DNA of 60,760 nucleotides from a virus (IMGVR_UViG_3300030060_000709:1-60760); one strand, 5' to 3'; shown: positions 3,115 through 39,650, counted from the stretch's first letter. The notes: generated from the letters alone by a model not told the origin. Numbers and translations are program-made.

Positions 3115-6100
3115 TGGCTGACGTAGAAGAAAAAGATCCAAATGACACTTTAGATCAAACACTTCCTAATAACCCAGATCAATCTGAAGCAACAGAAAGT
3201 GACTCTTACTGGAATTTTCTTGAAGATGATGAATTTCAATATAAGTTATCAAATACAGAACTATTTCAAGAATGGCAAGACAGTGCGCCTAGAGATCGTT
3301 TTACTGAAGAGTTTTCTTTAGCTCGTTATCCTAAACAAGGGGTAGCAGGGTCTGGCCCTTTTGCTGTTCCAGAGTGGTTTCCTAAATCTTACATCGCGTA
3401 TGCAAATACGTTTGATCCTTATATGTCCAACCGTTTACAAGAAACGGTGTTTCCTTCTTTTGGTAATGTTACCGAAGAATACTTAGATGATTTAACAGGT
3501 TTAGATTCATCCGTAGGTGATTTTCTTATTATAGGAATTACCCCACCTGATATTCTTGCTGCGAGTACAGACATAGAAAAATTGTGGAATCCAGAAACGC
3601 AAGCCTTTGAACCTAACCCAAATTACAACCCTGATGTAGGTGGATATGACAACATATACGATTTATACATCAACGATAAAACATATCTAAGAGATACAAA
3701 CCAGATAGGTACTTTGAGTGGAGAAAGTCTTGCAGATCAAGATTGGTTTGATGAAAGTAAACAAGAAATATTACGTAAGTTTGTAGAAAATCAAAGTCAT
3801 CCTAATTTTGATGATAACTATTTAGATGATACTGCTTCTATAGGTAAAGCTATAACGTGGGGAGAGTTTAGAAAAGCGTTAGCTAAAGGTGTAGATCCTG
3901 ATAAAGTATTTGCAGAACTAGAAAAACTATCTGAGTTACCCCAAGAAAAGTTTGCAGAAGGGCCGTTAGTTGATACAGCACAAAATTTAGTTGTTGAACG
4001 ATTTAAAGAAACTAGAGATGCTTTTTATAGCGAACTAAATGATTTTCGTGAGAATGATGGCACTGCATTTGTAGAGACATATGCATACCTACCCGTCCAA
4101 GACAAACTGCGATATTTAAACTCTTTGTACGATAGTAAAGAAATAAGTGAAGAGGAGTACGAAGGACTATTTGTACAAGAAATAAACGCTTTATATAACC
4201 CTGAGTTTACTCCTAATAATTTAAAGTTTGTAGAAATAAACGACAAATTTTATCTCGACACGTCTGGCTCTCAAGAAACAAAAGAATACCACCTTTATGA
4301 CGCTGATAATCAATTTTATGGCGACTATGATGATTATGAGTTTTTTAGTCAACTAGGTGGTACAAAAGGTGGTCCTACTGATGACTTTGATCCTAGTGGA
4401 TGGGACTTTCTTGACCCTATTGTAAGCGTAGTCTCTATGTTTGCTCCTGTTGTAGGTGCTATTTATACAGGAGTTAAAGCCCTGTCAGGAGAAGGTTTAA
4501 ATACAGGTGATTGGCTACGAGCGTTGCCGGGAATTGCCCAAGGGATTGAAATGGGGGCTGAAGCAGCGGGGTTTCCAGATTTTAAAACAACAACAACTCT
4601 TGGTGACTTATTTCCTGTTTTTAAAGGCACAATAATAGGAGGCACGACTGTAGGTATACCCACAGGAGGGGCAGGAAATGTTGCGGCACAAGCAGGATCA
4701 ATATTAGCCGGAGAAGGTGGGATATTTAAAGAGATAGGCGAAATAATAGTTGCTGCTGATACAGTTTCTAAACTACCTAAAGATCAAACAAGTGATACTG
4801 ATATAAATGGTAACGGAGTGTCTGATTTTGAAGAGGGTATAATCGTAAACTTTAGAGGAGCTATGGAAGACGAAGGAATTTATATTCCTGAAGACGTTTT
4901 TGCTGTAAATGATTACGGACAGTTTATAGGTGTTGACGGTAATCCTATAAGTTTTATTACTGTAATAGAACAAATTACCGATATTTTTAGAAAAGAAAAA
5001 CCTAGAGCCTTTGCTGATATGGTGATTAACACACCTAGCGAATATGCTGTCACTTTAAAAGATTTTCTTGGTGCTGCTTATTATAATTTAGCTGTATCTT
5101 TTGTGGCAGAAAAATCTTTAGATGAAGGTACAAAAGAAAGTTTATTTAGCGAAATGGCTCGTGAAGGTTTTTTACAAGCCTCACAAAACATAGCTGAAAT
5201 GGCTAACGGTCTGTTAGAAGCTGAGAATCTTTATTTTGAAAATGCAGAATTTGCTAGGTATGCAGAACATATTAATAAATTAGCAGAAAGTGGAAGAAGT
5301 CCAGAAATAGCAGAAAGCATGAAAGCCTTTGATGAGTATATGAGTAGCTACATAGACGTAGATACTATAACCGTTCCTACTAAAAAAGAAACAATAGAAG
5401 AAATAAAAGAAACTAATTTTTTAAATATCCTTCTTGCAACTGATGATAGGGTAAGAGAAGAAAGAGAAAAAGTAGCCACCGAAGGTTATGTAGGTTCTGA
5501 TGGAAAACTTTATACAGGAGAAGAAGCAACTACTCGTTGGGATGCTAATAAGATAGAAGAAATAGCCAAAGATAGAATAAGTGCTATAACAGGATTTAAT
5601 GGTGCTGTTAACGGTGTTAGATCTATGACAGGAGCCATAGTAGAAGCACCAATAGCTGTTGCTGTAGAAGTGATTAGTGAAGTATTTGAAGAAGTCCCAA
5701 GTATACTTACTCAAATGATTGCTACTATGGGGGCTAAAAAGTATTTAAAAGGATTAAATAAAGCCGTTCCTGACAAATACATTAAATTATCTCAAGACAG
5801 AATAAAAGACATGGCTGTTAAAGCTGGCCTTACCGCTGGTTTTGCTTATGATTTTGCAGAAGGCTATGGGTTGGGTGTAAGTGAAGGTTTTAATGCTGCA
5901 ATGGAAACTCAGTATGAAGTGCTTTATAACAAGTATAAAAATTCAGATGTGTTTAAAAATTATACAAAACAACTAAACCAACAAGTTAGTGATGGCATTT
6001 TACCTGAAGAACAGTACAACGAAAAAGCTCAAGAATACCTTAAAAGTTTAGTAGAGACTCCAGAAAACATGGAGTTTATAAGAGGACGAGCTATTGAAGT

Positions 6101-9100
6101 TGGTCAAGAACAAGGAATGTTTAGCGCATCTATACAAACAATGATGGGTGCAATGGGATTTAGTTCAGCAGCAGACAAACTAACGCTTGAAAAAATATTT
6201 GGTAAAAAAGCCATTAAAGAAATATCTAAAGTAGCTGATGGCACAGTTTGGAAACAAATAAAAAGTTATGCAGAACGCACAGGGAAAAATTTTACTACCG
6301 ATGTAAGAGAATTAGCTAATTCATGGTTAAAAGAAGCCTTTGGAGAAGGTGTAGAAGAAGGAGCACAAACAGATAATCTAAATAAGCAGCTTCTTAATTT
6401 AGACCCAGATAATGTTACAGGTATAGATAGACCTAAAGATGCTTTCGCTTCTGCAACGCTTGGAGCAGTTTTAGGTCTTGAGTCTTCTTCTCTTATGACA
6501 TCATCTATGTGGGCGGTAGATACATCGTTAAATTTAGCAGAAGCAGGAATTGAGATACCTTATATATTAAGAGAAAATTATATTCAAGGAGCTTATAAAA
6601 ATTCTGTTACTACGCCTAGTGGTGAAGTACTAGAAGGAGAATATATACCTGCTAGAGCAAATTCTGAAAACAGTATTGCTACTAATGCAGTAGTTTTATT
6701 TAATCCTCAAGTTAACAATGCACTAACACTTAATTCTGACGGCACTCCTGTATTTACTGAAACTGAAGTAATTCAAGTATTAGATAACGTAGGAATAACC
6801 ACTGATAGTTCTCCTCGTGTATATACAAGTATATTAAACGAAATTGATGACGAAAATTATATTAGTCCTTTTGAAGCAAAAGAGGTATTTGCAGATGAAG
6901 ATTATGTACCTACAGAAGCAGAAGTAGATCAGTTTATAGGTAATACTTTTGGTGATAGCACTATCGGTCAAGGAATATATGAATATGTAGATCCTCGTCA
7001 GTTAACTGAAGAAGAACTTGATTTAATTATAGGAGATATAGATGTAACACTGACTGCCGAACAAAGAGCAGAACTTATACGTCAGTATACCGAACCTTTA
7101 GATAACCAAACTAGAGTTCAAAATTTTATAGATAGCTTAAATTTAGAGCCTGAACCAGAGCCTACTACCTATACTGCTGGTGAACTGGTTGGTCCAGATG
7201 AACAAGGCAGATACCGTATTGCAGGTGAGGACGGTGAAACACTAAGTGAAGAATTCTACGATAAAGATGGTAATCCTTACGTAGCTCCTACTACTACTAC
7301 TACTACCTATACTGCTGGTGAACTAGTTGGCCCAGATGAACAAGGTAGGTATCGTATTGCAGGTGAGGACGGTGAGACACTAAGTGAAGAATTCTACGAT
7401 AAAGATGGTAACCCTTATGTAGCTCCAGATACTACTACTACTACTACCACTACTACCTATACTGCTGGTGAATTAGTTGGTCCAGATGAACAAGGTAGGT
7501 ATCGTATTGCAGGTGAAGATGGTGAAACATTAAGTGAAGAATTCTACGATAAAGATGGTAATCCTTACGTAGCTCCAGACGATACAGGTGGTAAAGACGA
7601 TACAGGGGGTAAAGATACAGACGATACACCTACTACCACCACACCTACTCCTGCTACCACAAGTATTCCACAGTTTAGTAAAGAAAAAGACTATCTTGAA
7701 GGGGATGTTGTTACTGATGTAAATGGAGTTCTTTATAGAGCAGATAGACTTGTAAACAAAAATACTGCTGGATTAGGTAATGATTATTATTGGCAACGAA
7801 TAGTTACTATAGACTACGATCCCAATCTTGAGTATAGACAAGGTGATATTGTAAATCGAAATGGTGTTTATTATAGAGCCAAAAGCGAAATAATTGCTAA
7901 CAGTGCTGGATTAGGTAATACAGAGTATTGGGCACCAGTACCAATTTCGGGTAATGCTAGAAACTTTACAAATTTAGATAGAGACACAGGTGCAGATACA
8001 GATGCAGATCCAGTAGGTACAGATGCAGATCCAGTAGGTACAGGTGTAGATCCAGATACAGGTCTTACAGAAGATCAAATAAAACAGATAGTGCAGGGAG
8101 TGTTAGACGGTCTACCTGCTAGTATATCCACTGAAGATATGCAAAATGCTATAGCAACAGCATTAGCCAATCTACCTGCTGGTATATCCACTGAAGATGT
8201 GCAAAATGCTATAGCAACAGCATTAAATAACGCTGATTTATCTACCCTAACAGAGGCACAAGTACAAGGTATTGTAAATAACGCTGTAGAACAAATAACA
8301 GGTGATATAAGTGATGTACAAGGCACTGTAGATAGTATTACAGATCAAGTAACTAAAGCAGAAGAAGCAGGAATAGCAAGGGACGAAGCCTTAGAAGGTG
8401 CTATAGATCAGGTTGCCACAGACTTAGGATTAACCAGAACACAATTACTAGAAGCTATAGGTGAAACAGAACAGACGCTACTTAGTAGATTGGGTGAAGT
8501 AGAGACAGAACTTTCTAGTGATATACAGTTAGTATCAGAGTTTGTAGGTAAACCTGCCCAACAAGTAACGCAAGATGACATAGATTTTGTTGCAGATGTT
8601 ATAGCTCAACAAGAAGCAACGACAGAATTAGCAGTTCTCACTGAACAGCAATTACAGTATGATGTTAATCAAGATGGCGTGGTTGACATAAATGATCAAG
8701 TCATGTTAGAACAGGCTATGGCAGGGCAAGATGTTGCATTACAGGGACGTTTTGCCCCCACAGGTTTATATGAACAGGCTGCACAGACACAACAAGATAT
8801 AGAAACAGCCCAAGAGTTAGCTACACAACAGGCAATACAAACACAACAGCAGATACAAAGCACTGCTGCTGAACAAACAAGACAAAGAAGAGAAGATCAA
8901 TTTTTAAGAGATTTGTTGCTTGAAGAACCACAAACAGCAACAACGCAACAGATGGGTGTAGCTAATATACCGTATTTATACGATATAAGTGGGCAGAGTA
9001 TATTTGCACCTACAAACAGAACGCAGTTGTTTTCGCCATACGGGGATAGTAACGTGGTGCCAATAACACCACAGAACCAACAAAATAAACCACAGTTAAG

Positions 9101-9167
9101 GCCATTTGCAAAAGGTGGTTTGATAAGACGTAACAATGCGCTGTTACGGTTAATAGGAGAAGATTAA
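3114..9167 (+). CDS. Giant acidic internal virion protein with internal repeats, two CBM5/12-like modules and an EF-hand-like loop
   Basis: 2017 aa, GTG start overlapping upstream stop; 3x TYTAGELVGPDEQGRYR repeats; Y..GD.V..NG..YRA...YW modules; YDVNQDGVVDIND loop; C-terminal FAKGG. Confidence 0.6.
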   Translation: MADVEEKDPNDTLDQTLPNNPDQSEATESDSYWNFLEDDEFQYKLSNTELFQEWQDSAPRDRFTEEFSLARYPKQGVAGSGPFAVPEWFPKSYIAYANTFDPYMSNRLQETVFPSFGNVTEEYLDDLTGLDSSVGDFLIIGITPPDILAASTDIEKLWNPETQAFEPNPNYNPDVGGYDNIYDLYINDKTYLRDTNQIGTLSGESLADQDWFDESKQEILRKFVENQSHPNFDDNYLDDTASIGKAITWGEFRKALAKGVDPDKVFAELEKLSELPQEKFAEGPLVDTAQNLVVERFKETRDAFYSELNDFRENDGTAFVETYAYLPVQDKLRYLNSLYDSKEISEEEYEGLFVQEINALYNPEFTPNNLKFVEINDKFYLDTSGSQETKEYHLYDADNQFYGDYDDYEFFSQLGGTKGGPTDDFDPSGWDFLDPIVSVVSMFAPVVGAIYTGVKALSGEGLNTGDWLRALPGIAQGIEMGAEAAGFPDFKTTTTLGDLFPVFKGTIIGGTTVGIPTGGAGNVAAQAGSILAGEGGIFKEIGEIIVAADTVSKLPKDQTSDTDINGNGVSDFEEGIIVNFRGAMEDEGIYIPEDVFAVNDYGQFIGVDGNPISFITVIEQITDIFRKEKPRAFADMVINTPSEYAVTLKDFLGAAYYNLAVSFVAEKSLDEGTKESLFSEMAREGFLQASQNIAEMANGLLEAENLYFENAEFARYAEHINKLAESGRSPEIAESMKAFDEYMSSYIDVDTITVPTKKETIEEIKETNFLNILLATDDRVREEREKVATEGYVGSDGKLYTGEEATTRWDANKIEEIAKDRISAITGFNGAVNGVRSMTGAIVEAPIAVAVEVISEVFEEVPSILTQMIATMGAKKYLKGLNKAVPDKYIKLSQDRIKDMAVKAGLTAGFAYDFAEGYGLGVSEGFNAAMETQYEVLYNKYKNSDVFKNYTKQLNQQVSDGILPEEQYNEKAQEYLKSLVETPENMEFIRGRAIEVGQEQGMFSASIQTMMGAMGFSSAADKLTLEKIFGKKAIKEISKVADGTVWKQIKSYAERTGKNFTTDVRELANSWLKEAFGEGVEEGAQTDNLNKQLLNLDPDNVTGIDRPKDAFASATLGAVLGLESSSLMTSSMWAVDTSLNLAEAGIEIPYILRENYIQGAYKNSVTTPSGEVLEGEYIPARANSENSIATNAVVLFNPQVNNALTLNSDGTPVFTETEVIQVLDNVGITTDSSPRVYTSILNEIDDENYISPFEAKEVFADEDYVPTEAEVDQFIGNTFGDSTIGQGIYEYVDPRQLTEEELDLIIGDIDVTLTAEQRAELIRQYTEPLDNQTRVQNFIDSLNLEPEPEPTTYTAGELVGPDEQGRYRIAGEDGETLSEEFYDKDGNPYVAPTTTTTTYTAGELVGPDEQGRYRIAGEDGETLSEEFYDKDGNPYVAPDTTTTTTTTTYTAGELVGPDEQGRYRIAGEDGETLSEEFYDKDGNPYVAPDDTGGKDDTGGKDTDDTPTTTTPTPATTSIPQFSKEKDYLEGDVVTDVNGVLYRADRLVNKNTAGLGNDYYWQRIVTIDYDPNLEYRQGDIVNRNGVYYRAKSEIIANSAGLGNTEYWAPVPISGNARNFTNLDRDTGADTDADPVGTDADPVGTGVDPDTGLTEDQIKQIVQGVLDGLPASISTEDMQNAIATALANLPAGISTEDVQNAIATALNNADLSTLTEAQVQGIVNNAVEQITGDISDVQGTVDSITDQVTKAEEAGIARDEALEGAIDQVATDLGLTRTQLLEAIGETEQTLLSRLGEVETELSSDIQLVSEFVGKPAQQVTQDDIDFVADVIAQQEATTELAVLTEQQLQYDVNQDGVVDINDQVMLEQAMAGQDVALQGRFAPTGLYEQAAQTQQDIETAQELATQQAIQTQQQIQSTAAEQTRQRREDQFLRDLLLEEPQTATTQQMGVANIPYLYDISGQSIFAPTNRTQLFSPYGDSNVVPITPQNQQNKPQLRPFAKGGLIRRNNALLRLIGED
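7164..7578 (+). repeat. Three near-identical ~40-codon intragenic repeats separated by poly-Thr (ACT)n linkers
   Basis: TTYTAGELVGPDEQGRYRIAGEDGETLSEEFYDKDGNPYVAP x3, visible at DNA level. Confidence 0.95.
8111..8226 (+). repeat. 60-bp tandem duplication in the giant virion gene
   Basis: tctacctgct(a/g)gtatatccactgaagat(a/g)tgcaaaatgctatagcaacagcatta repeated at 60-bp period. Confidence 0.9.
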
Positions 9168-12818: not shown

Positions 12819-15800
12819 ATGGCTACTTTAGCTCAAATAGATCGTGCTATAGAGAAATATTCTGAACGTGGTAATCAAGAATTAGTTGATGAGCTATTTA
12901 AAGAACGAGCTAGAATACAAGATATTATATTAGAAAGACGTTATGGTAAATCTGTTTCTGATGCGGGCATACTTGAAAATATAGGCAAAGGTCTTGGCAC
13001 AGGGTTTACAGGGTTTTTAGAAACTTCTGCAATAGGTGCTGCTACTCTTCTTGAAGAAGAAAACGAACTTGCAGCCCGTAAAAAAATCAAAGACTTCTTC
13101 GATATAGAAGCTCTAAAAGGAGCAGACGAAGAATCCCTACCGTTTCAAATCTCTGCTGGTCTTGGCTCTATAGCAGCCCTAGCTCCTACCGCATTTCTTG
13201 GTGGTTCTGCTCTTCCTACTGCGGGTGTTTTAGCTGCTGGTGCTGGTGCTGGTGAAGCTAGTGAACGTGCTCGTGACTTTGGTGCAACTGAAGGAGAACG
13301 TAGTCTTGCAGCTTTAAAAGGTATTGCTGTAGGAGCCACAGAAGTATTACCACTTGGCAGAATATTCCAAGGTCTTGATAGGTTTGGAGATTTAGGTAAA
13401 AACTTACAGATTCCTGAAATACAAAAAGTGTTAAACAAACTTGGTCCCGAATCTATAGACGGTATAAAAAGTAGAATACAAAGTGCAGCAGGGACAACAG
13501 TGGTAGAGGGCGCACAAGAAGGTGCAGCCGCAATATTACAGAATCTTATCGAACAAGGATACAACCCAGAAAAAGAGCTAGTAGATGCTGGAGTGCTAGA
13601 AGAAGCGTTCATAGGCGGTACTGCGGGTGGTATATTCCAAGGACTTGTTGATTTTCTTGTTAAAGGAAAGGACAGAACACCTGACACAGATACAGACACA
13701 GATACAACTGTTGATACTGATGAAGCGGCAAGGCTCGGTGCTACTGGCATTGACGAAGAGGCAAGGCTCGATGCTACTGCTGTAGTTACAAAAGAAGAAG
13801 CTGCTGACATTGATAAAAAAATTATTGATGAAGTTGCAGGAGAAGAAGGAAAAGTAACTGAAGAAGATCCAACAATAATAACTGAAGAGGAAGATGCTAA
13901 CCTAGAATACCAAGCTATGTTAGAAAGGTATGATAAAGAGGCTGAACTAAAAGCAGAAGAATTAATAAAAGAAATAAATGCAGAAATAGATGCTGCTATT
14001 AATGCGGGTGCTAGTGATGCAGAACTAGCTGCCATAGTGGAAAGTTATGGTGGAAAAGAAAATATTTATCTTAAAGCTGCAATGCTACGTAGTAAAAAAG
14101 AACGAGAGACTACTGATGCTACAGGAAAAGAAGATTTATCGGCTGTTAGCACCAAAGAACTAAAAGCTAGACTTATTGCAGAAAAAAATAACGAAGCAAT
14201 ACAAGTTGAACTAATGCGTAGATCTCAAAAGGAGGCTGATGATGCAAGAGTTGACGAAACAAGAGTTGGAACTGGCGTTTCAGATGATACATCAGGCCAA
14301 ACTGGAAAGGATGTCACTACAGTTACAGAAACTGACGATGCAAGAGTGGTTAGTGATGGAAAAGGTGTTAGAACTACTGATGTACGAAAAACAGAAGAGC
14401 GAGGTGCATTAAACGATCCTCGGTTTGCTAGTTATTTATCTAACCTAAACCCAAAAGGGACTATAAATCAAATAGCAGAACAAAATAGTGAAGGGTTCGA
14501 TATTAAGTCAATGGACGAATTTATTGCTATAAATAATGACACAAAAAAACTTAGATTTAGAGAAGGTAACACACCAGAGTTTATAAAAAACATACTTGGC
14601 CCAAAGGTAGAATCACTTGACGTAGACAAACTACAAAGATTAAAACAACAACAAAAAGCAACACAAAAAGTAGATAAACAAATTGGCACAAAAGAAGAAT
14701 ATGAAGAAAGTGTTAGAAAAAGGTTAGAAAAATATCCTGATGCAGAAACAGTACCGTATGAACAAAGAAGGGCTGAGTATAATAACCAGCTTAAAGTAGA
14801 TCGTTACGTAGAAAAATTTGATAACCCTACCGATGCCATAGCTAATGCAATCTATGAAGTGGCTGATGAACAAGCTCAAACTCAAAAAATTAAAGAAGGA
14901 ACAGAAGAAAAAGGTGAAGAAGATCTTGGGTCGGATATAGACCCATTAGAAAATGTGTACGAAGGGTTAGGAGGAGCAAACGCTGAAGCTCTTATAACTT
15001 GGACACAACAAAACCTCTCTGAACCCGTGCGAAACAGAATAGCAGCTAGATTAGAAGCAACTAGGGATGGTATATCTGCTATAAGACAAAGAGTTGAAGA
15101 GGGACTAGAAGAAGGTTTTGATACAGATGCGTTTCGTAATGCAGAACTTTTAGACAGATACGTAAACGAAAAAATAAATTTTCAAACAGTTGATCTTTCA
15201 AAAACAAGAACAGACACTGGGCCAAATGAATTTTTTGATACAAGAGCAGACGCTCTTTATAGAACAAGACCTTTTATTACTGATACAGAGTTAACAAAGT
15301 TAAAAAAAGACCAAGACAAAACAAGCGTTGTTTCCACAGGTGCAGAAGTTTCTACAATAGAAGACGATGTTGGAGATGACGATGTTGGAGATACAACCGA
15401 TGTTGATCCAAGAATAAATGTAATTCAAGCAGCAGCTAGAAAAGTTCAAACTAAAGAAGATAAAACTAAAAAAGTAACTCCTTTTCAACAAAGAGTAGAT
15501 GATCTTGTAAACGCTAAAATAGAAACTTTATCTAAAAAAGATAAAACTAAACTTTCTGGTATGGGTAAATCTTTAAAAGATACGTTAGACACAACGCTTC
15601 GTTCTATACGGATGCAAGAATTAGAAGATACTAAATCAAAACAAAGAGACCCTGACGAATTTGACAGAAGAATTTCTTTAGAAATAGCTGATAATTATTT
15701 TGCAACGATGAAATCCGACGATTTAATAGATGCAGCGGAATTAGCAAGCCAAACCATTGATATGCTCAAAAATAAATTACCGACAGGGTATGTCAACAAG

Positions 15801-18800
15801 TTAGACGGTATGGTGGACGACTCTGTAGCAACTCTAATTAAAGAGGGTGATTTAAGTGGTGCTCTCCAAGAATTAAGTAACACCTCCACAGACAAAAGAG
15901 TAAAGCAAATTGCTCGTGTTCTTTCTGGGGCTGTAGGAACAAACGCTAAAGTTGAAATTATGGAGTCAGGCGATAACTACGCTAAAGGTAACATAGCTTA
16001 TATAAACCAAAATAAAGAAACAGACGGTGGGTTATATGTACACACGGTGTTGCATGAAGCAGCGCACGTTGCTGTAAATAACATAACAGATAATAAACCC
16101 TCTCACCCCATGACTAGACAATTAAATAGATTGTTTGAACAGGTCAAAGATAATTTAGAAGGTGACTATGGAGTTAACAACCTACAAGAGTTTATATCTG
16201 AGGCATTAAGTAATTCTAGTTTCCAAAGTAGTCTAGCTGCTATATATCCTGATGGTAAACCCATAACTGCTTTAGGGCGTTTCTTTAGAAGTATCACTAA
16301 TTTCTTACGTAAGATAGCAGGTATGGAAACCAAACCATTAGATTCTGCCTTAGATCTTGTCGATAGAGAACTTATAGCATTTTTATCGCCTACCCCGGCT
16401 ACTAGAGATAGTGGGTCTATGAGTGCATACGCATCACGAGATGGTGCAAAGAAACTTGCCAAAGAGATAGGTGACATACAAAAAGGTTTTGCTCGTCCTA
16501 CACCTAAATTTCAAGATGACTTTGGTAGAGAAACCTTAGATATAACAGATAAAATGGCTAACATTGCATCTAAATCAGGCATATTTTCTACTTTTGATAG
16601 TTTAACTATGGGAGATGTAGCGAAGGCAAGAGGTTTTGGTGATTTAGGTACACAACTTCACCAGTTAATACAGTCAGTGCGTGGTAAAAAAGCAGAATCC
16701 GACAGGCTAGTAAAAGAAGAAGTAACTAAAGTTTCAAATTGGGCAAAGAAAAACCCTAAAGAAATGGAAATGTTAAATGACTTAATTTACAGCCGTGAGT
16801 ATGGTGCCACTATATACCAAGTGGACCCAACATTGACTCTTCAACAGGCTAAAGATAGATATATAACAACAAACAAAAAAGGAGAATCTAAATACGAAGT
16901 TGACAAAGAAAGCGGTAAAGAATTGTTTAGTATATGGAACGAACAACAAAAGATATGGAGTAAATTAGAAAAAAGCGGTGGGCACAAAATATACACTGGT
17001 ATGCGAGATATGTACAAACGGCAGTACAAGCAACTTGAAAGAGTTATCAGGGGTCGTTTAGATGAAGTTGTAGGAGAAGATAAAAAAGCTGCTGCCGAGT
17101 TAAAGAAGTCTGTTTACGATAGACTTTTTGATAATAAAACTTTAGATGTGTATTTCCCGTTAGTGCGGTCAGGTAAATACAAGCTGACTTATTCCCAACC
17201 AGTAGAAAAAGGTAAAGAATTAGCTGAACGAGATACATTTGTTGTTTTGATGTTTGAGACCGAAGCAGAAAGAGATGCTCAAGCAATGAAAGCAAGAGCC
17301 GACAAAAAATTAAACATAACGGTTAGTGATGGTGATATAAGTTTTGACAGTTACAGAAACAACCCAGACGGTTCTTTTGTAAACCAAGTGTTAACTACTT
17401 TAGAGAAAGCGCAAGCATCGAATGAAGTTAAACAGGAAATAATGGATCTGTTTGTGAAAGCACTACCTGAGACCTCTTTTGCAAAATCACTAGCACGTAG
17501 AAAAGGTTTTGAAGGGTACGAAAAAGACGCTATATTTGCTATGCGTTCAAAAGCCTATGATCTTGGTGCCCAAGTAGAGCGTCTTAAAGTAACAGGTGAA
17601 ATATATAAGGTAGAGGATGCAATAGTAAAAAAAGGTGAAGAGTTAAATAGGGCTTTAGAAACAGCTAACCAAAAAAGCACCACCAATGCGATTGTTGATG
17701 ACTTGTTAAAACGTGCTAAATTTACTAAATTCGGTGCATCAAACAAAACGCTTGACGGTATCGCTAGGAATCTAAACCAAGGAGCGTTTATCTATACAAT
17801 AGGATTTAACGCTTCCTCTGCGTTAGTTAACGTAAGCCAACTCCCCATGTTTGTATACCCTATGTTGTCTGCCCGTTATGGAGCATCTAAAACTTATCAG
17901 GCAATGCAAGAAGCTACAGGTATAACTTTCTCCAGTAGGAATGCTATAGATGCTTATTTTGATGCAGAACCCGTAATTGAAAAAGACAAAGATGGTAATG
18001 ACGTACCAACAGGAGAAGTAAATTATACTCTTAAAAAAGACCTACCTAAAAATCTTGAAAAAGTTTTTGGTCCTCTTGATGTATTAGTTAAACGAGCGTC
18101 CCAAAGATCTTATCTAACACAATCCTTTTTAGCAGACGCTTTAGGGTTAGATGAGTCTACCCAAACTTGGGAGTTTTTATCTGAGAAATTAGGTTTAGAA
18201 CGAGCTAAAAGAGTGCCTTCATCTGACATAAATCCTTTTACAAAAGCATTAAATTCCATATCTGCCACGTCTGCAATTATGTTCAATGCAGGAGAAAAAT
18301 TTAACCGTCAAACTACTTTGGTAGCATCTTACAATTTAGCGTTAGGAGAGATAACTAAAAACAATCCAAAAGACAAAGATGGCAATCCTAAAAACGTAAC
18401 TGACGCACAAAAAGCAGAAGCCGCAGATCAGGCTATGGATATGACCACACAATACAACGGTGGTGCAGTAATAGAGACAGGTGCGAGAATATCACAAGAT
18501 AGTCTTGGTCGTGTTGCATTTATGTACAAAAATTTTGGTATGCGTATGTATACTACGATGTTCCAAACAGGTAAAAGATTTTTAGATAATGCATACGCTC
18601 CATCACCAAACGAAACAGCGGCTGAGAAAGCGCAACGAATATTAGAGCGAAACATAGCAGCAAAACAGTTAATTGGTATACATGCATCGTCCATATTGTT
18701 AGCAGGAGCACAAGCAGCCCCCCTATACAGTTTGTATCAATTAATTGCGGGTGCATTTAATTTACTTTATGAAGAAGACGAAGAAGGTAAAGCTAGATTA

Positions 18801-19565
18801 GATGATGTCGATACAATGGCACGTCAATACCTAACAGAAGGTTGGTATAAAGGTCCGTTGGTTCAGTTATTAGGTATAGATTTTTCAGAGAGAATTAGAT
18901 TAAATAATTTACTTTTTCAAGAAAACAGGTTTAATTACAATCCTTCTCTTGAAGAGAATCTATTTTATTACTTTGGTGGTCCTGCATTTAGCACAGCTAA
19001 AAGATTTGAAAGAGGGATTGAAAATTTAAGAGCAGGAGAAGTTGAAAGGGGTATAGAAAATTTTATACCTCCCGCAATTACTAACGCCTATAGAAATACA
19101 CTTGGTCGTTACGCTGAAGAGGGGAGCATATTAACAAGAAGAGGAGATCCAATAGCTTCTGATTTAAATGCGGGAGATTTATTTGCAGGTGCTATAGGAT
19201 TCCCCCCGATTGAATATACTCAAGAACAAGACTTTAAAAATACTGAACAGCGTATAAAGAAAGAAGTCAATGCAGAACGAGCAAAAATACTACGAGATCG
19301 CAACATAGCTATAAACAACGGTGACGCGATTGGTATAAGAGAAGCAACTCAAAAAGCCATTGATTTTAACCGTAAGTATAGAGATGTAACTACTAACCGT
19401 ATAACTTTTGAATCTATGAAAAAATCTTTATCTGCCTTTAGAAGATATACTGAAGAGATGAGGGGTACTTCATCTAATATGTCAGGTGGGTACGAACGTT
19501 ATTTCTTAGATAAAAGAGATACGTATGACAACTCTACAATCTTATCTCAGTTGCTAGGGGACTAA
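12819..19565 (+). CDS. Large polyvalent-type virion protein with zincin metallopeptidase motif
   Basis: 2248 aa; TVLHEAAH (HExxH) followed by LQEFISEALSN; last gene of the ejection block. Confidence 0.65.
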   Translation: MATLAQIDRAIEKYSERGNQELVDELFKERARIQDIILERRYGKSVSDAGILENIGKGLGTGFTGFLETSAIGAATLLEEENELAARKKIKDFFDIEALKGADEESLPFQISAGLGSIAALAPTAFLGGSALPTAGVLAAGAGAGEASERARDFGATEGERSLAALKGIAVGATEVLPLGRIFQGLDRFGDLGKNLQIPEIQKVLNKLGPESIDGIKSRIQSAAGTTVVEGAQEGAAAILQNLIEQGYNPEKELVDAGVLEEAFIGGTAGGIFQGLVDFLVKGKDRTPDTDTDTDTTVDTDEAARLGATGIDEEARLDATAVVTKEEAADIDKKIIDEVAGEEGKVTEEDPTIITEEEDANLEYQAMLERYDKEAELKAEELIKEINAEIDAAINAGASDAELAAIVESYGGKENIYLKAAMLRSKKERETTDATGKEDLSAVSTKELKARLIAEKNNEAIQVELMRRSQKEADDARVDETRVGTGVSDDTSGQTGKDVTTVTETDDARVVSDGKGVRTTDVRKTEERGALNDPRFASYLSNLNPKGTINQIAEQNSEGFDIKSMDEFIAINNDTKKLRFREGNTPEFIKNILGPKVESLDVDKLQRLKQQQKATQKVDKQIGTKEEYEESVRKRLEKYPDAETVPYEQRRAEYNNQLKVDRYVEKFDNPTDAIANAIYEVADEQAQTQKIKEGTEEKGEEDLGSDIDPLENVYEGLGGANAEALITWTQQNLSEPVRNRIAARLEATRDGISAIRQRVEEGLEEGFDTDAFRNAELLDRYVNEKINFQTVDLSKTRTDTGPNEFFDTRADALYRTRPFITDTELTKLKKDQDKTSVVSTGAEVSTIEDDVGDDDVGDTTDVDPRINVIQAAARKVQTKEDKTKKVTPFQQRVDDLVNAKIETLSKKDKTKLSGMGKSLKDTLDTTLRSIRMQELEDTKSKQRDPDEFDRRISLEIADNYFATMKSDDLIDAAELASQTIDMLKNKLPTGYVNKLDGMVDDSVATLIKEGDLSGALQELSNTSTDKRVKQIARVLSGAVGTNAKVEIMESGDNYAKGNIAYINQNKETDGGLYVHTVLHEAAHVAVNNITDNKPSHPMTRQLNRLFEQVKDNLEGDYGVNNLQEFISEALSNSSFQSSLAAIYPDGKPITALGRFFRSITNFLRKIAGMETKPLDSALDLVDRELIAFLSPTPATRDSGSMSAYASRDGAKKLAKEIGDIQKGFARPTPKFQDDFGRETLDITDKMANIASKSGIFSTFDSLTMGDVAKARGFGDLGTQLHQLIQSVRGKKAESDRLVKEEVTKVSNWAKKNPKEMEMLNDLIYSREYGATIYQVDPTLTLQQAKDRYITTNKKGESKYEVDKESGKELFSIWNEQQKIWSKLEKSGGHKIYTGMRDMYKRQYKQLERVIRGRLDEVVGEDKKAAAELKKSVYDRLFDNKTLDVYFPLVRSGKYKLTYSQPVEKGKELAERDTFVVLMFETEAERDAQAMKARADKKLNITVSDGDISFDSYRNNPDGSFVNQVLTTLEKAQASNEVKQEIMDLFVKALPETSFAKSLARRKGFEGYEKDAIFAMRSKAYDLGAQVERLKVTGEIYKVEDAIVKKGEELNRALETANQKSTTNAIVDDLLKRAKFTKFGASNKTLDGIARNLNQGAFIYTIGFNASSALVNVSQLPMFVYPMLSARYGASKTYQAMQEATGITFSSRNAIDAYFDAEPVIEKDKDGNDVPTGEVNYTLKKDLPKNLEKVFGPLDVLVKRASQRSYLTQSFLADALGLDESTQTWEFLSEKLGLERAKRVPSSDINPFTKALNSISATSAIMFNAGEKFNRQTTLVASYNLALGEITKNNPKDKDGNPKNVTDAQKAEAADQAMDMTTQYNGGAVIETGARISQDSLGRVAFMYKNFGMRMYTTMFQTGKRFLDNAYAPSPNETAAEKAQRILERNIAAKQLIGIHASSILLAGAQAAPLYSLYQLIAGAFNLLYEEDEEGKARLDDVDTMARQYLTEGWYKGPLVQLLGIDFSERIRLNNLLFQENRFNYNPSLEENLFYYFGGPAFSTAKRFERGIENLRAGEVERGIENFIPPAITNAYRNTLGRYAEEGSILTRRGDPIASDLNAGDLFAGAIGFPPIEYTQEQDFKNTEQRIKKEVNAERAKILRDRNIAINNGDAIGIREATQKAIDFNRKYRDVTTNRITFESMKKSLSAFRRYTEEMRGTSSNMSGGYERYFLDKRDTYDNSTILSQLLGD

Positions 19566-30289: not shown

Positions 30290-30314
30290 TGTATGACCAA
30301 ACTCTGGTCATACA
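30290..30314. promoter_or_regulatory. 25-bp palindromic element, copy 1 of 6
   Basis: TGTATGACCAAACTCTGGTCATACA. Confidence 0.8.
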
Positions 30315-30323
30315 CTTGGGCAT

Positions 30324-30346
30324 AAAAAAAGGGAGCCGAAGCTCCC
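30324..30346 (-). terminator. Rho-independent terminator closing the early operon that contains the tas-array locus
   Basis: Minus strand GGGAGC-TTCG-GCTCCC followed by T7. Confidence 0.85.
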
Positions 30347-30379
30347 TCAAAAGTGCTGATTGTTATTGGAGAAACATTA

Positions 30380-30640
30380 TCAGCTAGGTCGTAAACCGTA
30401 AACCAAGTATTCGTTTTCACGCAGTCTTTTACCTATACCATCCACCGCACGTACCCAATCGGCTTCTTTCTTGCTCGTAATATATAGAACTGCCAAACGT
30501 CCTTGCATCCACTCTGGGAGTTTATCTATCGAATCATACGCTCCCAAAAGTTCGTTGTCAATACATTCCATACCAATACATGATATATCGACACGTTTAG
30601 TATTATTGTCTATTACTACGTAATAAGCACTGTTGTCCAT
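30380..30640 (-). CDS. Hypothetical protein (86 aa), similar to the C-terminal domain of 32412-33614
   Basis: Start moved to MDNSAYY (AGGAG upstream); LPEWMQGRLAVL...VDGIGKR...YLVY. Confidence 0.7.
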   Translation of the reverse strand: MDNSAYYVVIDNNTKRVDISCIGMECIDNELLGAYDSIDKLPEWMQGRLAVLYITSKKEADWVRAVDGIGKRLRENEYLVYGLRPS

Positions 30641-30676
30641 GCTATTCTCCTGTTTGTTATAACATGTTATAACTTT

Positions 30677-31552
30677 TGACTCGTTCAATCAGACTGGTTT
30701 TCTTGAACTTCTTGACTCGCTTGCTCGAACTGGTTTTCTCCTGCGGCATGACTCGCTTTGTACTCGTTGGTTTTCTAAACTTCCATGACTCGCTAACACT
30801 ATTTGGTTTTCTACATAAATGTGACTCGCTTTTGACCGTTGGTTTTCTAGAGTGTTGTGACTCGCTTGATCAATCTGGTTTTCTCCCTAATCCTGACGCG
30901 CTATTCGGTCATGGTTTTCTTCCTTTTTGTGACTCGCTTTTTTGCCTAGGGTTTCTCGTTATTGATGACTCGCTAACTGGAAATGGTTTTCTTGTCCTCG
31001 ATGACTCGCTTGATTTTTAATGGTTTTCTCACCATCTTTGACTCGCTTACCGACTCTGGTTTTCTCCAAATGGTTGACTCGCTTTCCAATTTTGGTTTTC
31101 TGTTTAACGCTGACTCGCTTCATTGAGGTGGTTTTCTAATTCTCATTGACTCGCTCATTTGCCGTGGTTTTCTCCACTGGTGTGACTCGCTTTGCTTTGC
31201 TGGTTTTCTTGTTCCATGTGACTCGCTCATGGGAAATGGTTTTCTTCCTTGCCCTGACTCGCTTTTTGGTTATGGTTTTCTCAAAATCTTTGACTCGCTC
31301 ATCCACGTTGGTTTTCTTGGGAACCCTGACTCGCTTGGCCTAGCTGGTTTTCTTCCTTTTTGTGACTCGCTTACCGACTCTGGTTTTCTCTAAATGGTTG
31401 ACTCGCTTTTTCATTTTGGTTTTCTTTAATAGAATGACTCGCTCCACGCGGCTGGTTTTCTCCACATGGTTGACTCGCTTTCCTTCCTTTGGTTTTCTGC
31501 GTTAATATGACTCGCTCGTCCATGTTGGTTTTCTTTCCTAACTTGACTCGCT
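30677..31552 (-). repeat. TIGR-type tandem interspaced guide RNA array, 24 units of 36 (three of 37) nt
   Basis: 25 copies of TGACTCGCT and 24 of TGGTTTTCT (+ strand) alternating with variable 9-nt (three 10-nt) spacers; sense unit AGTCA-N9-AGAAAACCA-N9-AGCG; begins 3 bp after the stop of the Nop/IS110-like gene. Confidence 0.93.
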
Positions 31553-31555
31553 TGG

Positions 31556-32419
31556 TTATGCGACCTTGTGGTGTATGCCCAACTTGGCTTTGCTGTACTC
31601 GTCTGCGACAGGTAGACCTTCCAGTGTTCGCCATGCTGTGTACAGATCCACAAGGAACCGCTTGACAGTATAGCGTATCGCCATGTTGTTTATGTGTGCC
31701 TTGGTTTTCTCAGCGTGAACTGGCATGTGTTGTATGCGGCTCTTGTAATTATCGTAGACCTCACGGTACTTACCATTGGTCTTAACAAACGAAGAACCCA
31801 AAACACCAATCAATTTAGTCTTCATAAAGGGATTGAACGATATACCTTTCTTGGTCTGCTCCTTACCCTCTGAATCCAAATAAGTCTGATCCACCAGATG
31901 TTCTTTTATGCGAGACCGACCCTTATCACCCACGACATCAAGCCCTGCGTATGCCCATAATGAACTCGCATACTGCGCTTTGTGAATGTCGAAGCCACTA
32001 ATTATGACAGCCGCCATCGTTGGGCCGACACCTTTCACATCTTCCAAGAAATGCTTGTAGATCGGAAACTTCTTGACCGCATAGGTGATCTGCTTGAGTG
32101 CGTTCTCTTCTGCCGCCACCAGATCGAAATACTGCTGTATCAATGAGAACTCACTGTACTCCGAGATCAACCCATCTTCCTTGAATCGACGTGGAGTCAT
32201 GGTCACAATGCCATCGGTAATCTTCTTGTAACTTGTTCTAAGATTACTCAGTAACAACTTGGCATCAGTGTCCAGAGTCTCCTCCGACTTGCTTGGTTCC
32301 TGACCAATCTTGATCTTGAAGTTTGCTACTACATTATTACCTACTCTGATGCGTGTCTTCTGCATACTATAGAACCCATTGACTGCTGCTTTTAACATTG
32401 CACTTTGAATATCACTCAT
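31556..32419 (-). CDS. tasA: TIGR-associated Nop-domain protein, nuclease-less (TasA-type)
   Basis: 287 aa from MSDIQ (GGAGAAAGGA RBS, overlaps upstream stop); FYSMQKTRIRVGN helix, VKGVGPTMAAVII HhH, SSLWAYAGL, FNP..KTKL, HINNMAIRY..K.FL..LY..WR; related to IS110 C-terminal/Nop fold; no RuvC (DEDD) or HNH domain visible; abuts the dual-repeat array. Confidence 0.85.
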   Translation of the reverse strand: MSDIQSAMLKAAVNGFYSMQKTRIRVGNNVVANFKIKIGQEPSKSEETLDTDAKLLLSNLRTSYKKITDGIVTMTPRRFKEDGLISEYSEFSLIQQYFDLVAAEENALKQITYAVKKFPIYKHFLEDVKGVGPTMAAVIISGFDIHKAQYASSLWAYAGLDVVGDKGRSRIKEHLVDQTYLDSEGKEQTKKGISFNPFMKTKLIGVLGSSFVKTNGKYREVYDNYKSRIQHMPVHAEKTKAHINNMAIRYTVKRFLVDLYTAWRTLEGLPVADEYSKAKLGIHHKVA

Positions 32420-34534: not shown

Positions 34535-34559
34535 TGTATGACCAAACTTTGGTCATACA
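34535..34559. promoter_or_regulatory. 25-bp palindromic element, copy 2 of 6 (perfect 12-1-12)
   Basis: TGTATGACCAAACTTTGGTCATACA. Confidence 0.8.
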
Positions 34560-34560
34560 C

Positions 34561-34710
34561 CTAGCCTTGTTGTATCCGCTTCCATGCGGCTTCGATTTCT
34601 TCCTTGGTGTATGGGTTAGCCGCACCATTGAACCACGGAGATGTGGCGTACTTCACCAAAAACTCCATGATCGCCTTTGCTTCACCCCATTCCATTCTCT
34701 CGTCAGTCAT
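34561..34710 (-). CDS. Small hypothetical protein (49 aa)
   Basis: Manual translation MTDERMEWGEAKAIMEFLVKYATSPWFNGAANPYTKEEIEAAWKRIQQG*; start overlaps VWA gene stop (TAATG). Confidence 0.6.
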   Translation of the reverse strand: MTDERMEWGEAKAIMEFLVKYATSPWFNGAANPYTKEEIEAAWKRIQQG

Positions 34711-35903
34711 TACATATTCCTCGATTCAATATGAGTTACCTTGCCCACGTTAGGCTTGGCTCCCTTGTTATCCAATATTGCCCAGAGTAAAGGGCAACTC
34801 CAATCACCCCAACTACCTGCCAAGTAGCCATCAGTCAGAACAATGACTGCTTGGGGAGTGATGCGTTCTTCCTTCATGTACTCAGTGACGCACTCAACCT
34901 CTGTGCCGCCACCACCCACAGGTTTAGTAGACTTGGTGAGATTATCTATCTCGTCCATCTCATAGGTCTCGTCACCTGCTATCTTGTGACCCCAGTAGAT
35001 CAATCGCACCTTGTCTGGTTTTACTGTGGTGCATATCCCCTTGACCTCAGTGAGAAACAATGTGAGTTCACGCTGTCCGATAGACCCAGACGTATCGACT
35101 GCGAGTACAAGTTCTTCGACCTTCTCTGAGACACCACTTGGCATGTAGATACCCTGCCCAATGAATCTGCGGTTCGGTCTGTTCCATGTCGAGAAGTCCT
35201 TACCTGCACAGGTAGCGTTGATAAACTCACGTAACATCTCACGCCAATCGACTTGTGGCTTGAGCAACTCATCGAAGTCACGATCAACGTTATGTCCCAA
35301 CTTACCTGCCGACAGCGCACCTTGGCGTATGGCTTCATCGATGTCCCGTTCGAGTTGACGTTCTTCATCTTCTGATAGACCGTCAGCACCCTCCCAGTCA
35401 TGTTCGTCCAGTGGCTCGCCATGTCCACCTCCGCCACCTCCACCACCGCCTTCTTCTTGGTCTTGCTTGAGGATGTCGAATACTTGCTTGGCGTTCATGC
35501 CACGGAATCGTTCATCGATGCACCCACCATCAGGTAGCTTGGCGAACCCATCCCTGTTCTCATCTTGTATCTTGAGATTGATGACGAAATCACATGCCAT
35601 GTTTGCCAGTTTGCCATCTTGATCCCACAGATCACGCCACGTTGTAAGGTGTCGAAACAACTTGTGGTAGTTTTCGTGCAGTACCAGCCCGCGCAACTCA
35701 GCGTCAGTCAGTCCAATAATAAACTTGCGACCATACCTCTCGTCACGTCCGTTGGTATAGGCTGTTGGCACGTCATCTTCTACTGTCTTGTCACCAATCA
35801 TCAGTACACCTGCCAGTGCTGTGTACTTAGGTTCAGCCATGATAGCGACCACTGCCTTGTTCAGACGTTCTTCGCCTGTCAGTTCTCTGTTACCAATTAA
35901 CAT
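34710..35903 (-). CDS. DUF2201-type metallopeptidase-VWA protein
   Basis: PTAYTNG, VLHENYH (HExxH), N.ACD..IN, VDTSGS MIDAS, GGGT, LTDG. Confidence 0.88.
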   Translation of the reverse strand: MLIGNRELTGEERLNKAVVAIMAEPKYTALAGVLMIGDKTVEDDVPTAYTNGRDERYGRKFIIGLTDAELRGLVLHENYHKLFRHLTTWRDLWDQDGKLANMACDFVINLKIQDENRDGFAKLPDGGCIDERFRGMNAKQVFDILKQDQEEGGGGGGGGGHGEPLDEHDWEGADGLSEDEERQLERDIDEAIRQGALSAGKLGHNVDRDFDELLKPQVDWREMLREFINATCAGKDFSTWNRPNRRFIGQGIYMPSGVSEKVEELVLAVDTSGSIGQRELTLFLTEVKGICTTVKPDKVRLIYWGHKIAGDETYEMDEIDNLTKSTKPVGGGGTEVECVTEYMKEERITPQAVIVLTDGYLAGSWGDWSCPLLWAILDNKGAKPNVGKVTHIESRNM

Positions 35904-35914
35904 CTTGTCACCTC

Positions 35915-37012
35915 CTACTTCTTGTCTGCACTGAACAGATAGTTGTTAGCTACCGCCCAGTCTGTGAATTTACCATTAGCTACAACCACCTTGCGATGTT
36001 GGTATGTCTCGCGTATGGCTTGGTTGACAAACATACCCTGCGCTTCAGTGTCGAGCCGCACCATGTAATCCATCCATGCGTCAATCCACTTGTTACTCAT
36101 CTCCATCAGTGCCTTAGTCACCACCATGCAAACTGCCGCTGTACTGTCAGGCACAACTGCGGTCTTGGGGTTGTTCTTGAGTGACTCAAGTGATGGTAGC
36201 TGATCGCCAATCTTTACAAACGCCATCAAGTCCATCGCTGTACGCTCACCAACAGCACCCATGAGTAGTGCAGTCAGGGTGTGATCGTCTAGGTTGTGAC
36301 GTTGCTTGAGTACGTCAGATGCAGCATGACCACTGCGCGGTGTGAAGAATGACCTACGCTCTTGACGTGGGTGGAAAATGTACAGATTGTCATCGGGATC
36401 TTTGACCTGTGTGAAGTCTTGGAACAATGCGGTCTTGTACTCTTTGACGAACCCAAGCAATGCCAGATCAAAGTCGTTGCGTATGCCATAGGCTATGTAG
36501 TCATCAGCCGTTGGCTTCTTCATACGGACTAGGACAAGTCTATTCCGTGCATGGGGTGGTAGCATGTCACCCACGTTCTCAGCGCCAAGGTTAGTGGTGG
36601 CAAATATTATCGAGTCAGGGTGTAGTGTGTAACCACCGATCTTGCGCTCCAACATAAGTCGTAGCAGTGAGTTCTTGACGGCAGTGTTAGCCTTGCCATA
36701 CTCGTCAATCATCAAGAGCACTGGTTTGTGGTGATGTGCGCCCAGTTCTTCGTTGGTCAAATACTGAACGTACCCAGAGCCGTCATCCATGTGGGCGATG
36801 TTAGGTATGGTGATATCACCCAAGTCCTTGGTGGTACAGTCAAAGTAGCAAGGCATGTGCGTGGCTTTGACTGCGGCTAGCATCGGTAGCATCGATGACT
36901 TGCCAGTGCCCATGTGACCTTCGACCAACATAGTCCGTAGGTGACCTGTGTGTAACAGTGCGTTAACACACTGATCGATTGATAATGCGTAAATATCTTT
37001 TGCGTCTGACAT
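35915..37012 (-). CDS. AAA+ ATPase (MoxR-like), partner of the VWA protein
   Basis: GHMGTGKS Walker A, LLMIDE Walker B, ATTN, RNR, TPRS; adjacent to the VWA gene. Confidence 0.88.
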   Translation of the reverse strand: MSDAKDIYALSIDQCVNALLHTGHLRTMLVEGHMGTGKSSMLPMLAAVKATHMPCYFDCTTKDLGDITIPNIAHMDDGSGYVQYLTNEELGAHHHKPVLLMIDEYGKANTAVKNSLLRLMLERKIGGYTLHPDSIIFATTNLGAENVGDMLPPHARNRLVLVRMKKPTADDYIAYGIRNDFDLALLGFVKEYKTALFQDFTQVKDPDDNLYIFHPRQERRSFFTPRSGHAASDVLKQRHNLDDHTLTALLMGAVGERTAMDLMAFVKIGDQLPSLESLKNNPKTAVVPDSTAAVCMVVTKALMEMSNKWIDAWMDYMVRLDTEAQGMFVNQAIRETYQHRKVVVANGKFTDWAVANNYLFSADKK

Positions 37013-37030: not shown

Positions 37031-37055
37031 TGTATGACCAAACTCTGGTCATACA
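37031..37055. promoter_or_regulatory. 25-bp palindromic element, copy 3 of 6
   Basis: TGTATGACCAAACTCTGGTCATACA. Confidence 0.8.
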
Positions 37056-37997: not shown

Positions 37998-38022
37998 TGT
38001 ATGACCAAAGTTAGGTCATACA
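37998..38022. promoter_or_regulatory. 25-bp palindromic element, copy 4 of 6
   Basis: TGTATGACCAAAGTTAGGTCATACA. Confidence 0.8.
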
Positions 38023-38059: not shown

Positions 38060-38088
38060 ATTATGACATAAATACCATTCTGTGTCAA
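38060..38088 (-). promoter_or_regulatory. Strong sigma70-type early promoter
   Basis: Minus strand TTGACA-17 nt-CATAAT with extended -10 TGn; points into the 37970-30380 operon. Confidence 0.8.
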
Positions 38089-38468: not shown

Positions 38469-38604
38469 CTCAACGCAGTATCGGAACTGGTTTCTTTGCC
38501 TGTATGACCAGAGTTTGGTCATACACATGACTGACTCAGCGCAGCAGGGGAACTGGTTTCTGTGATGTGCGTAATGACTCAACGCGGCAAGGGAACTGGT
38601 TTCG
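38469..38604. repeat. Three imperfect ~26-bp direct repeats CTCA(A/G)CGC...GGAACTGGTTTC
   Basis: Copies start at 38469, 38535 and 38578. Confidence 0.75.
38501..38525. promoter_or_regulatory. 25-bp palindromic element, copy 5 of 6
   Basis: TGTATGACCAGAGTTTGGTCATACA (reverse complement of copy 3). Confidence 0.8.
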
Positions 38605-39625: not shown

Positions 39626-39650
39626 TGTATGACCAAACTTTGGTCATACA
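39626..39650. promoter_or_regulatory. 25-bp palindromic element, copy 6 of 6 (perfect 12-1-12)
   Basis: TGTATGACCAAACTTTGGTCATACA. Confidence 0.8.

Follow-up and report, generated by a model that had tools for sequence, protein, structure and literature searches.

An intact dual-repeat TIGR-TasA locus with a 24-unit guide array, as read from the genome of a marine tailed phage

The viral genome record IMGVR_UViG_3300030060_000709, analyzed over its whole length of 60,760 bases (hereafter, the window), carries on its minus strand a gene, tasA, followed almost directly by a tandem array of short alternating repeats and spacers. The tasA gene (31556..32419, minus strand) begins with ATG at 32419, ends with a TAA stop at 31558-31556 and, on the basis of its open reading frame (ORF), homology and fold, is assigned to a 287-amino-acid (aa) solo-Nop TIGR-associated protein. 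The TIGR array (30686..31552, minus strand) comprises 24 units, and a terminal edge repeat, AACGAGTCA (30677..30685, minus strand), closes unit 24. Judged from sequence and structural models, the locus is an intact dual-repeat TIGR-TasA system, a member of a family published in 2025 (PMC12045711); this assignment follows from Tas homology and fold, the lack of a nuclease domain, a conserved Tyr/His dyad and the architecture of the array. A first-pass annotation, made from the sequence alone, had proposed a TIGR-Tas system of the TasA type, and homology to TasR and TasH, the fold, the absence of a nuclease, the array architecture, the box pairing and the maturation dyad all bear it out.

The linker between the tasA stop and the first edge repeat consists of three bases, CCA (31555-31553). 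Parsing of the array unit by unit confirmed the 24 dual-repeat units previously placed 3 bp after the stop of a 287-aa gene, and Tandem Repeats Finder reported periods of 36, 72 and 108 over 30749-31553; a 36-nucleotide (nt) period is also that published for dual-repeat arrays (PMC12045711). Each unit is ordered as an edge repeat, AGCGAGTCA, spacer A (9 nt), a loop repeat, AGAAAACCA, and spacer B (9-10 nt); 21 of the 24 units are 36 nt long and three are 37 nt long, the 10-nt spacer B being found in units 2, 15 and 22. Repeat variation within the array is limited to three copies: AGCGAGTCA heads 23 of the 24 units and AGCGCGTCA heads unit 19, the loop repeat is AGAAAACCA in 23 of 24 units and AGAAACCCT in unit 17, and the closing copy is AACGAGTCA. 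Edge and loop repeats alike begin with AG and end with YCA, so that every spacer follows YCA and precedes AG, as first described, with the CCT variant traced to unit 17 and the AA variant to the closing repeat. No Rfam family was found for the array, the only two matches being sub-threshold and both lying on the terminator hairpin described below. The array is not a product of chance, since 23 of 30 related viral loci have the same repeat pair 3′ of tasA, combined with other spacers. These 23 parsable arrays hold 294 units with 190 unique spacer pairs; they have the same loop repeat, and their edge repeat is AGCGAGYCA or AACGAGTCA. In most relatives (loci L001-L030) the first edge repeat is truncated at its 5′ end and takes in the TGA stop codon of tasA (…CTTGAGCCA), while in the window and in the related locus L002 the stop codon is TAA and a complete edge repeat comes after the intervening CCA.

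In the TasR structure, as described in PMC12045711, each of the two repeats opens with box D and closes with box C, and a base of one box is paired with a base of the other. At the sequence level, the pairing of AG with YCA in the present repeats matches the published tigRNA architecture and the box C/D pair of that structure. Among 294 internal edge repeats of the clade, positions 2 and 7 are occupied by G-C in 198, G-U in 64, A-U in 24 and other combinations in eight, i.e., by a standard pair in 286 of 294, and of the 26 copies with A at position 2, 24 have T at position 7. The edge repeat also has C-G at positions 3 and 6 in 291 of 294 copies. The loop repeat has an A-rich center, with G-C at positions 2 and 7 around it in 301 of 318 copies. 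The box D of the present array is AG, as opposed to the UG described for TasR arrays in PMC12045711, which is a variant inside the range that the same description allows; the box C of its edge repeat, UCA, gives a G-U pair.

For tasA, an alternative longer ORF with a GTG start would encode 313 aa; in contrast, relatives of 287 aa align over 100% of the 287-aa form. The protein is composed of an N-terminal coiled coil (approximately residues 3-115) followed by a C-terminal Nop domain, and the translation contains VKGVGPTMAA and SSLWAYAGL, the two motifs (GVGP..AA and SLWAYAGL) on which the first-pass annotation had relied. A phmmer comparison with the sequences of solved structures in the PDB gave 9mty_A (TaTasR) as the best match (E 3.3e-13, residues 92-273), and the TasH of Salicola phage CGphi29 was matched at E 3.8e-6. 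An AlphaFold2 model built with 60 homologues (mean predicted local distance difference test, pLDDT, 89.4; predicted template modeling score, pTM, 0.83) has three long helices in its N-terminal part, after which comes a domain that is largely helical and includes a single beta hairpin. When this model was searched against the PDB with Foldseek, ranks 1-10 were occupied by TasH and TasR chains only (E 9e-9 to 7e-7, probability 1.00), followed by the IS621/ISCro4 recombinases (E 3e-4 or worse) and then by Nop5, Nop56/58 and Prp31 (E ~0.3-1); the structure and sequence comparison against Nop, IS110 and Tas proteins that had been proposed as a check thus points to Tas. The expected absence of RuvC and HNH domains also held: no nuclease family was detected by Pfam at E up to 1, and residues 1-115 are modeled as long helices only.

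Homodimer prediction for TasA gave a score of 0.74, compared with 0.06 for the best control, with an interface formed by residues 4-37 and 87-117; of proteins with solved structures, 20 of 30 known as pairs and one of 23 known as single chains reached that mark. Contacts agreed between runs by at least 97%, and the partner pLDDT was at least 81. As Tas dimers have already been solved, this result may reflect likeness to those structures and is not independent proof of a dimer. A Tyr/His pair in the C-terminal loop of SpTasH, Y289/H296, is described as responsible for autonomous, metal-independent precursor maturation in dual-repeat systems (PMC13421893; preprint 10.64898/2026.09.09.750476). 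Y275 of TasA aligns with SpTasH Y289 in a HMMER alignment in which the SpTasH residue numbers are in register, and it is invariant in a six-protein alignment. The clade histidine, H284 in TasA, lies three residues past a conserved KLG, whereas H296 of SpTasH lies one residue past it, and owing to this offset H284 was assigned by conservation and not by exact position; each of the two residues is at least 90% conserved among the 60 homologues. By analogy, Y275 and H284 are candidate processing residues with which TasA may cut its own guide precursor.

Among characterized systems, FpTIGR-TasA of Flavonifractor plautii, compared by its description in PMC12045711, is similar in having a phage-borne, solo-Nop protein of about 290 aa with no nuclease. 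Systems of this type are likewise described with an array directly downstream, two alternating 9-nt repeats, 9-nt spacers and a 36-nt period, and dual-repeat TIGR-TasA systems in general with matching box D and box C ends in both repeats. The present array differs from that description in its size (24 units, as compared with "most often 5 to 15") and in its first edge repeat, which is full and not 5′-truncated. The best structural match is SpTIGR-TasH of Salicola phage CGphi29 (PDB 9w03, 9w04 and 21kl; NAR 2026, PMC13421893; Foldseek E 8.9e-9), which resembles the present system in its Nop domain, in the catalytic tyrosine with a conserved histidine nearby and in its dual-repeat phage array; the identity with TasA is about 26% over residues 86-281. 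SpTasH, however, has an N-terminal HNH nuclease and cuts DNA, whereas the present TasA has no nuclease. TaTIGR-TasR (PDB 9mty), the best sequence match among solved structures, has in common with TasA a coiled-coil dimer, an A-rich loop repeat and the second C-G pair of the edge repeat (positions 3/6), and carries a RuvC nuclease that is absent from TasA. The IS110/IS621 recombinases and the archaeal Nop5 box C/D ribonucleoproteins (RNPs) are more distant: their RNA-binding domain has the same kind of fold and their guides follow a similar two-part logic, but TasA is without a recombinase domain, fibrillarin or L7Ae, is accompanied by a tandem array of many guides and gives far weaker structural scores with these proteins than with Tas chains.

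The same likeness underlies an alternative identity for the locus, namely a remnant of an IS110-type recombinase, or a box C/D-like RNA-modification guide system, in place of a DNA-binding TIGR-Tas. TasA does match the PHROG phrog_4285, labeled "transposase", at E 2e-33, gives a weak Pfam match to Transposase_20 and recovers IS621 and Nop5 in the fold search; yet the label is inherited from likeness to the IS110 C-terminal part (compare ORF034 of Ralstonia phage RSL1), no DEDD/RuvC-like catalytic domain is present in the 287 aa, and IS621 ranks below ten Tas chains, with Nop5/Nop56 at E ~0.4. Moreover, 24 tandem guides stand where a single bridge RNA would be expected, and neither fibrillarin nor L7Ae was found among the 54 ORFs scanned. 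Taken with these points, this alternative appears very improbable, and the TIGR-TasA assignment is retained. As single candidates, an IS110 family transposase was rejected for want of the DEDD catalytic domain (no Pfam match to DEDD_Tnp_IS110 in TasA) and because the Transposase_20 match is partial (residues 123-163) and, at 18.7 bits, below the cut-off of 21.3, the only other sub-threshold Pfam match being HHH; a CRISPR array was rejected on account of the two 9-nt repeats and two spacers in each unit and the absence of any cas-like family from the 54 ORFs scanned against PHROGs.

The spacers have a G+C content of about 43%, compared with 41.5% for the phage. The final base of a spacer is partly constrained, since C is nearly absent from position 9 (3% in spacer A, 2% in spacer B) and 66% of 205 unique pairs have A at position 9 of spacer B. 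Complementarity between the ninth bases of the two spacers was found in 54 of 175 pairs, against 38.9 expected (z 2.4), which is not significant after correction; it ranked second of 162 position-pair tests, behind a shortfall in identity between the same two bases (z 2.5). No enrichment of a ribosome-binding site followed by ATG was detected in the guides, the best value for the window being P 0.04 uncorrected and the relatives showing none. Units 5 and 14 have an identical spacer B and differ by one base in spacer A, and units 6 and 18 have an identical spacer A with unrelated B spacers; this pattern of sharing points to guide duplication and recombination at the repeats within the array. 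None of the 24 guides of the window recurs in the 23 related arrays, even with four mismatches allowed over both spacers, although TasA is 78-93% identical between the present phage and the array-bearing relatives. The related arrays have units in common with one another, in partly rearranged order, and contigs from another seawater sample carry units 9-14 of the present array with four differences and with other units flanking them.

For target searches, sites were composed of spacer A followed by the reverse complement of spacer B, because the published cleavage leaves 8-nt 3′ overhangs and only this order fits. All four spacer orders were run in the searches of the phage's own genome, the related loci and the arrays, the three non-functional orders serving as controls. 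In the 60,760 bases of the window, the 24 guides in four arrangements with gaps of 0-2 gave no site at up to two mismatches; at three mismatches, 2, 3, 5 and 3 sites were found, the functional and the three control arrangements being alike. For 210 unique clade guide pairs searched against 379,944 bases (the window and 30 viral loci, with their arrays masked), no site was found at up to one mismatch, and the counts for the four arrangements at two mismatches (7, 11, 12 and 10) and at three (186, 165, 186 and 167) are at chance level. Against the arrays themselves, the functional arrangement gave nothing at up to one mismatch, and the few close matches belonged to the control order in which B directly follows A, arising from spacers that resemble the loop repeat.

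The first-pass annotation had suggested a search for the predicted targets in viral and microbial metagenomes. Viral contigs were scanned for five guides of the window, with a gap of 0-2 bases between spacer A and the reverse complement of spacer B. Guide 5/14 gave no match and hence no site, guide 7 one match at one unique site, guide 13 three matches at two, guide 10 eight matches at four, and guide 11 seven matches at four, one of them in a capsid-like gene of a phage represented by four contigs. As the opposite arrangement of guide 11, used as a control, gave as many sites (10 matches at six unique sites), these matches are counted as chance. A metagenome scan with guide 5/14 gave 19 matches at 13 unique, unrelated sites. 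No natural target was thus found, and the preprint 10.64898/2026.09.09.750476 says as much of the family at large. A guide common to seven related arrays, absent from the window, had 12 matches; its site, with a 1-base gap, lies at ~601-619 in two marine phage lineages that are 80% alike (L063/L073 and L068/L072), in both directly before the start codon of a small ORF. This site is a suggestive candidate for a natural target, from a run made without a chance control.

Relatives of TasA are numerous: 933 were found at E up to 0.001 by a word-indexed search, many of them from marine surveys, and an exhaustive search at the same threshold returned 2,637 cluster representatives. Among cultured phages, tblastn identified ORF034 of Ralstonia phage RSL1 (36% identity, annotated as "transposase") and a protein of a Microcystis phage; further matches were the TasH of Salicola phage CGphi29 and proteins of Sulfolobales and Acidianus viruses. 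In the RSL1 record, the 1.4-kb unannotated gap after ORF034 (14217-15643) contains a degenerate array with a period of about 36 nt and recurring AGTCACCC-like and AGTG-like motifs. Because such an array follows a gene product 36% identical to TasA, the jumbo phage RSL1 seems, from its sequence, to carry a TIGR-TasA locus labeled as a transposase. The eight window genes neighboring tasA had no tblastn match (E up to 1e-5) beside tasA in 35 loci, from which it appears that the tasA cassette is carried in different, unrelated phage backbones. The sole match to a neighboring gene was a 23%-identical polymerase fragment in the related locus L024, away from tasA, and tblastx revealed only scattered common genes elsewhere, e.g., a terminase in locus L014 and a 73-aa protein in L016.

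The genome is that of a tailed phage: its plus strand carries the genes for terminase, portal, capsid and tail, and a minus-strand block encodes DNA polymerase, helicase, primase, single-stranded DNA-binding protein and nucleases. The tasA gene lies within this block and overlaps by 8 nt the stop of a 400-aa gene lacking an assigned function. Downstream of the array, an 86-aa ORF without assigned function (30380..30640, minus strand) is preceded by an AGGAG ribosome-binding site and is probably on the same transcript as the array; it had no Pfam or PHROG match and no homologue in the 35 related loci. The first good terminator 3′ of the array is a hairpin, GAGGGAGC-TTCG-GCTCCCTT followed by T5 (30329..30348, minus strand). 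At the head of the operon, a promoter-like site (38060..38088, minus strand; TTGACA, 17 nt, TG-CATAAT) had been taken as the early promoter driving the locus. It is indeed the best sigma-70 match of the region (11/12), but such sites are no commoner there than in shuffles (17 versus 17.1) and it lies 5.6 kb and five genes upstream; co-transcription of the array with the operon from 38088-38060 is therefore no more than plausible, and the link to this promoter is one that we infer. Two RNA-library runs yielded one contig each (30443-30683 and 30502-30680) and no cover over the array; DNA can be present in such libraries.

No tRNA genes were found in the phage, and megablast against a phage collection returned no match. 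The closest cultured terminases, those of pelagiphages HTVC027P and HTVC023P (46-47% identity), are too distant to name a host, and a search of genome contigs with TasA gave one contig of an uncultured metagenome-assembled genome and two weak soil matches, with no host clue. A 25-nt perfect hairpin or palindrome, TGTATGACCA-N5-TGGTCATACA, occurs in six copies in the window (30290-30314, 34535-34559, 37031-37055, 37998-38022, 38501-38525 and 39626-39650), compared with 0.02 expected in shuffles. All copies are in the minus-strand early block, mostly intergenic, with one between the promoter-like site and the first gene and another just past the terminator of the array; no guide matches it, and it could be an operator or a hairpin for RNA processing or regulation. 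Between the last edge repeat and the next ORF (30643-30676), a self-complementary 8-mer, GTTATAAC, occurs twice, two bases apart, before the AGGAG. Upstream in the same operon (34710-37012), an AAA-type ATPase (PHROG 1297) is paired with a DUF2201 metallopeptidase/VWA-like protein (PF13203, PF09967); the PHROGs label "HNH endonuclease" on the DUF2201-type protein has no Pfam support. Two giant ORFs of 1,914 and 2,248 aa (3423-9167 and 12819-19565), almost without family matches, are situated between the endolysin/structural genes and the replication module.

Considering these data together, we regard it as highly probable that the window holds a dual-repeat TIGR-TasA cassette, placed in the early/DNA-metabolism operon of a marine tailed phage of lytic appearance, that works in the following way. 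The array and tasA would be transcribed as one precursor, to which a TasA dimer, formed through the N-terminal coiled coil, would bind, unit by unit, at the ends of the edge and loop repeats, AG (box D) and YCA (box C), as homology and structure prediction suggest. By comparison with SpTasH Y289/H296, the Tyr275/His284 loop of TasA would then cut within the edge repeat and release 24 tigRNAs of 36-37 nt, each of which would read about 18 bp of double-stranded DNA, its spacers A and B addressing opposite strands. The nuclease-free complex may bind and bend this DNA and block transcription or replication, in analogy with the TasA proteins that have been tested; that the system would bind rather than cut had also been proposed from the sequence, and it agrees with published TasA work, where repression and electrophoretic mobility shift assay (EMSA) data concern a stem-loop TasA.

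Several points weigh against this mechanism. The repression and EMSA data were obtained, according to the preprint 10.64898/2026.09.09.750476, with MbTasA, which is of the stem-loop and not the dual-repeat type, and transcription, processing and DNA binding of the present locus are predictions from sequence, models and analogy. In the alignment, the dyad histidine and SpTasH H296 are two residues out of register. The published typical layout has a terminator right after the array, whereas here there is none and the 86-aa ORF intervenes. The spacer order used for targets was derived from text and not from a figure, and a natural target was not found in the viral contigs, where the five guides had 0-4 unrelated sites each, against six in the control.

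As to what the guides are directed at, we give preference, at about even confidence, to the DNA of rival phages or other mobile elements; the complete turnover of guide content and the mobility of the cassette speak more for such targets than for host genes. Silencing of host genes during infection, as a means of host takeover, is a possible but less probable role: it would fit the position of the cassette in an early/DNA-metabolism operon, a spacer G+C content near that of the phage, as is often the case for host DNA, and the preprint 10.64898/2026.09.09.750476, in which a TasA represses a chromosomal Escherichia coli gene and host silencing is among the roles listed. Guides against conserved host genes, however, should be common to related arrays, which none of the 24 is, and the cassette is found in unrelated phage backbones. 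The array might also regulate the phage's own genes, as a temporal switch or as an aid to integration or packaging through DNA bending, and PMC12045711 raises gene regulation and help to an integrase as possibilities; given that no guide fits the phage's own DNA at up to two mismatches, that the three-mismatch counts equal those of the controls and that the comparison of 54 ORFs with PHROGs revealed no integrase, we consider this role improbable.

The locus is a further copy of an already published system, and the mechanism proposed for it is borrowed, by analogy, from characterized relatives; with 20,096 tas loci and 6,685 annotated arrays described in the preprint 10.64898/2026.09.09.750476, and with the many relatives found here, its kind is already known, as is the value of the family, a compact RNA-guided reading of DNA free of a protospacer-adjacent motif (PAM). 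As a complete phage genome in which a dual-repeat TasA locus with 24 guides is intact, the window is nevertheless suited to the question of the natural role of nuclease-free TasA, and it adds a clear negative, the guides fitting neither the phage itself nor ~320 kb of related phage DNA. The turnover of guides, complete between phages whose TasA is about 90% identical, the differing backbones and the mosaic arrays in other seawater samples offer hints on the gain and loss of guides in TIGR arrays. Duplication with point change, as in units 5 and 14, and recombination of half-guides, as in units 6 and 18, seem to be sources of new guides. Since the backbones vary, TasA stays 78-93% identical, the guides turn over completely and new ones seem to be duplicated or recombined, we put forward the tentative and rather doubtful reading that the tasA-array cassette is a horizontally mobile, fast-diversifying guide library in the warfare between marine phages. 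If this is true, TIGR arrays would have a CRISPR-like population biology without an adaptation machine.

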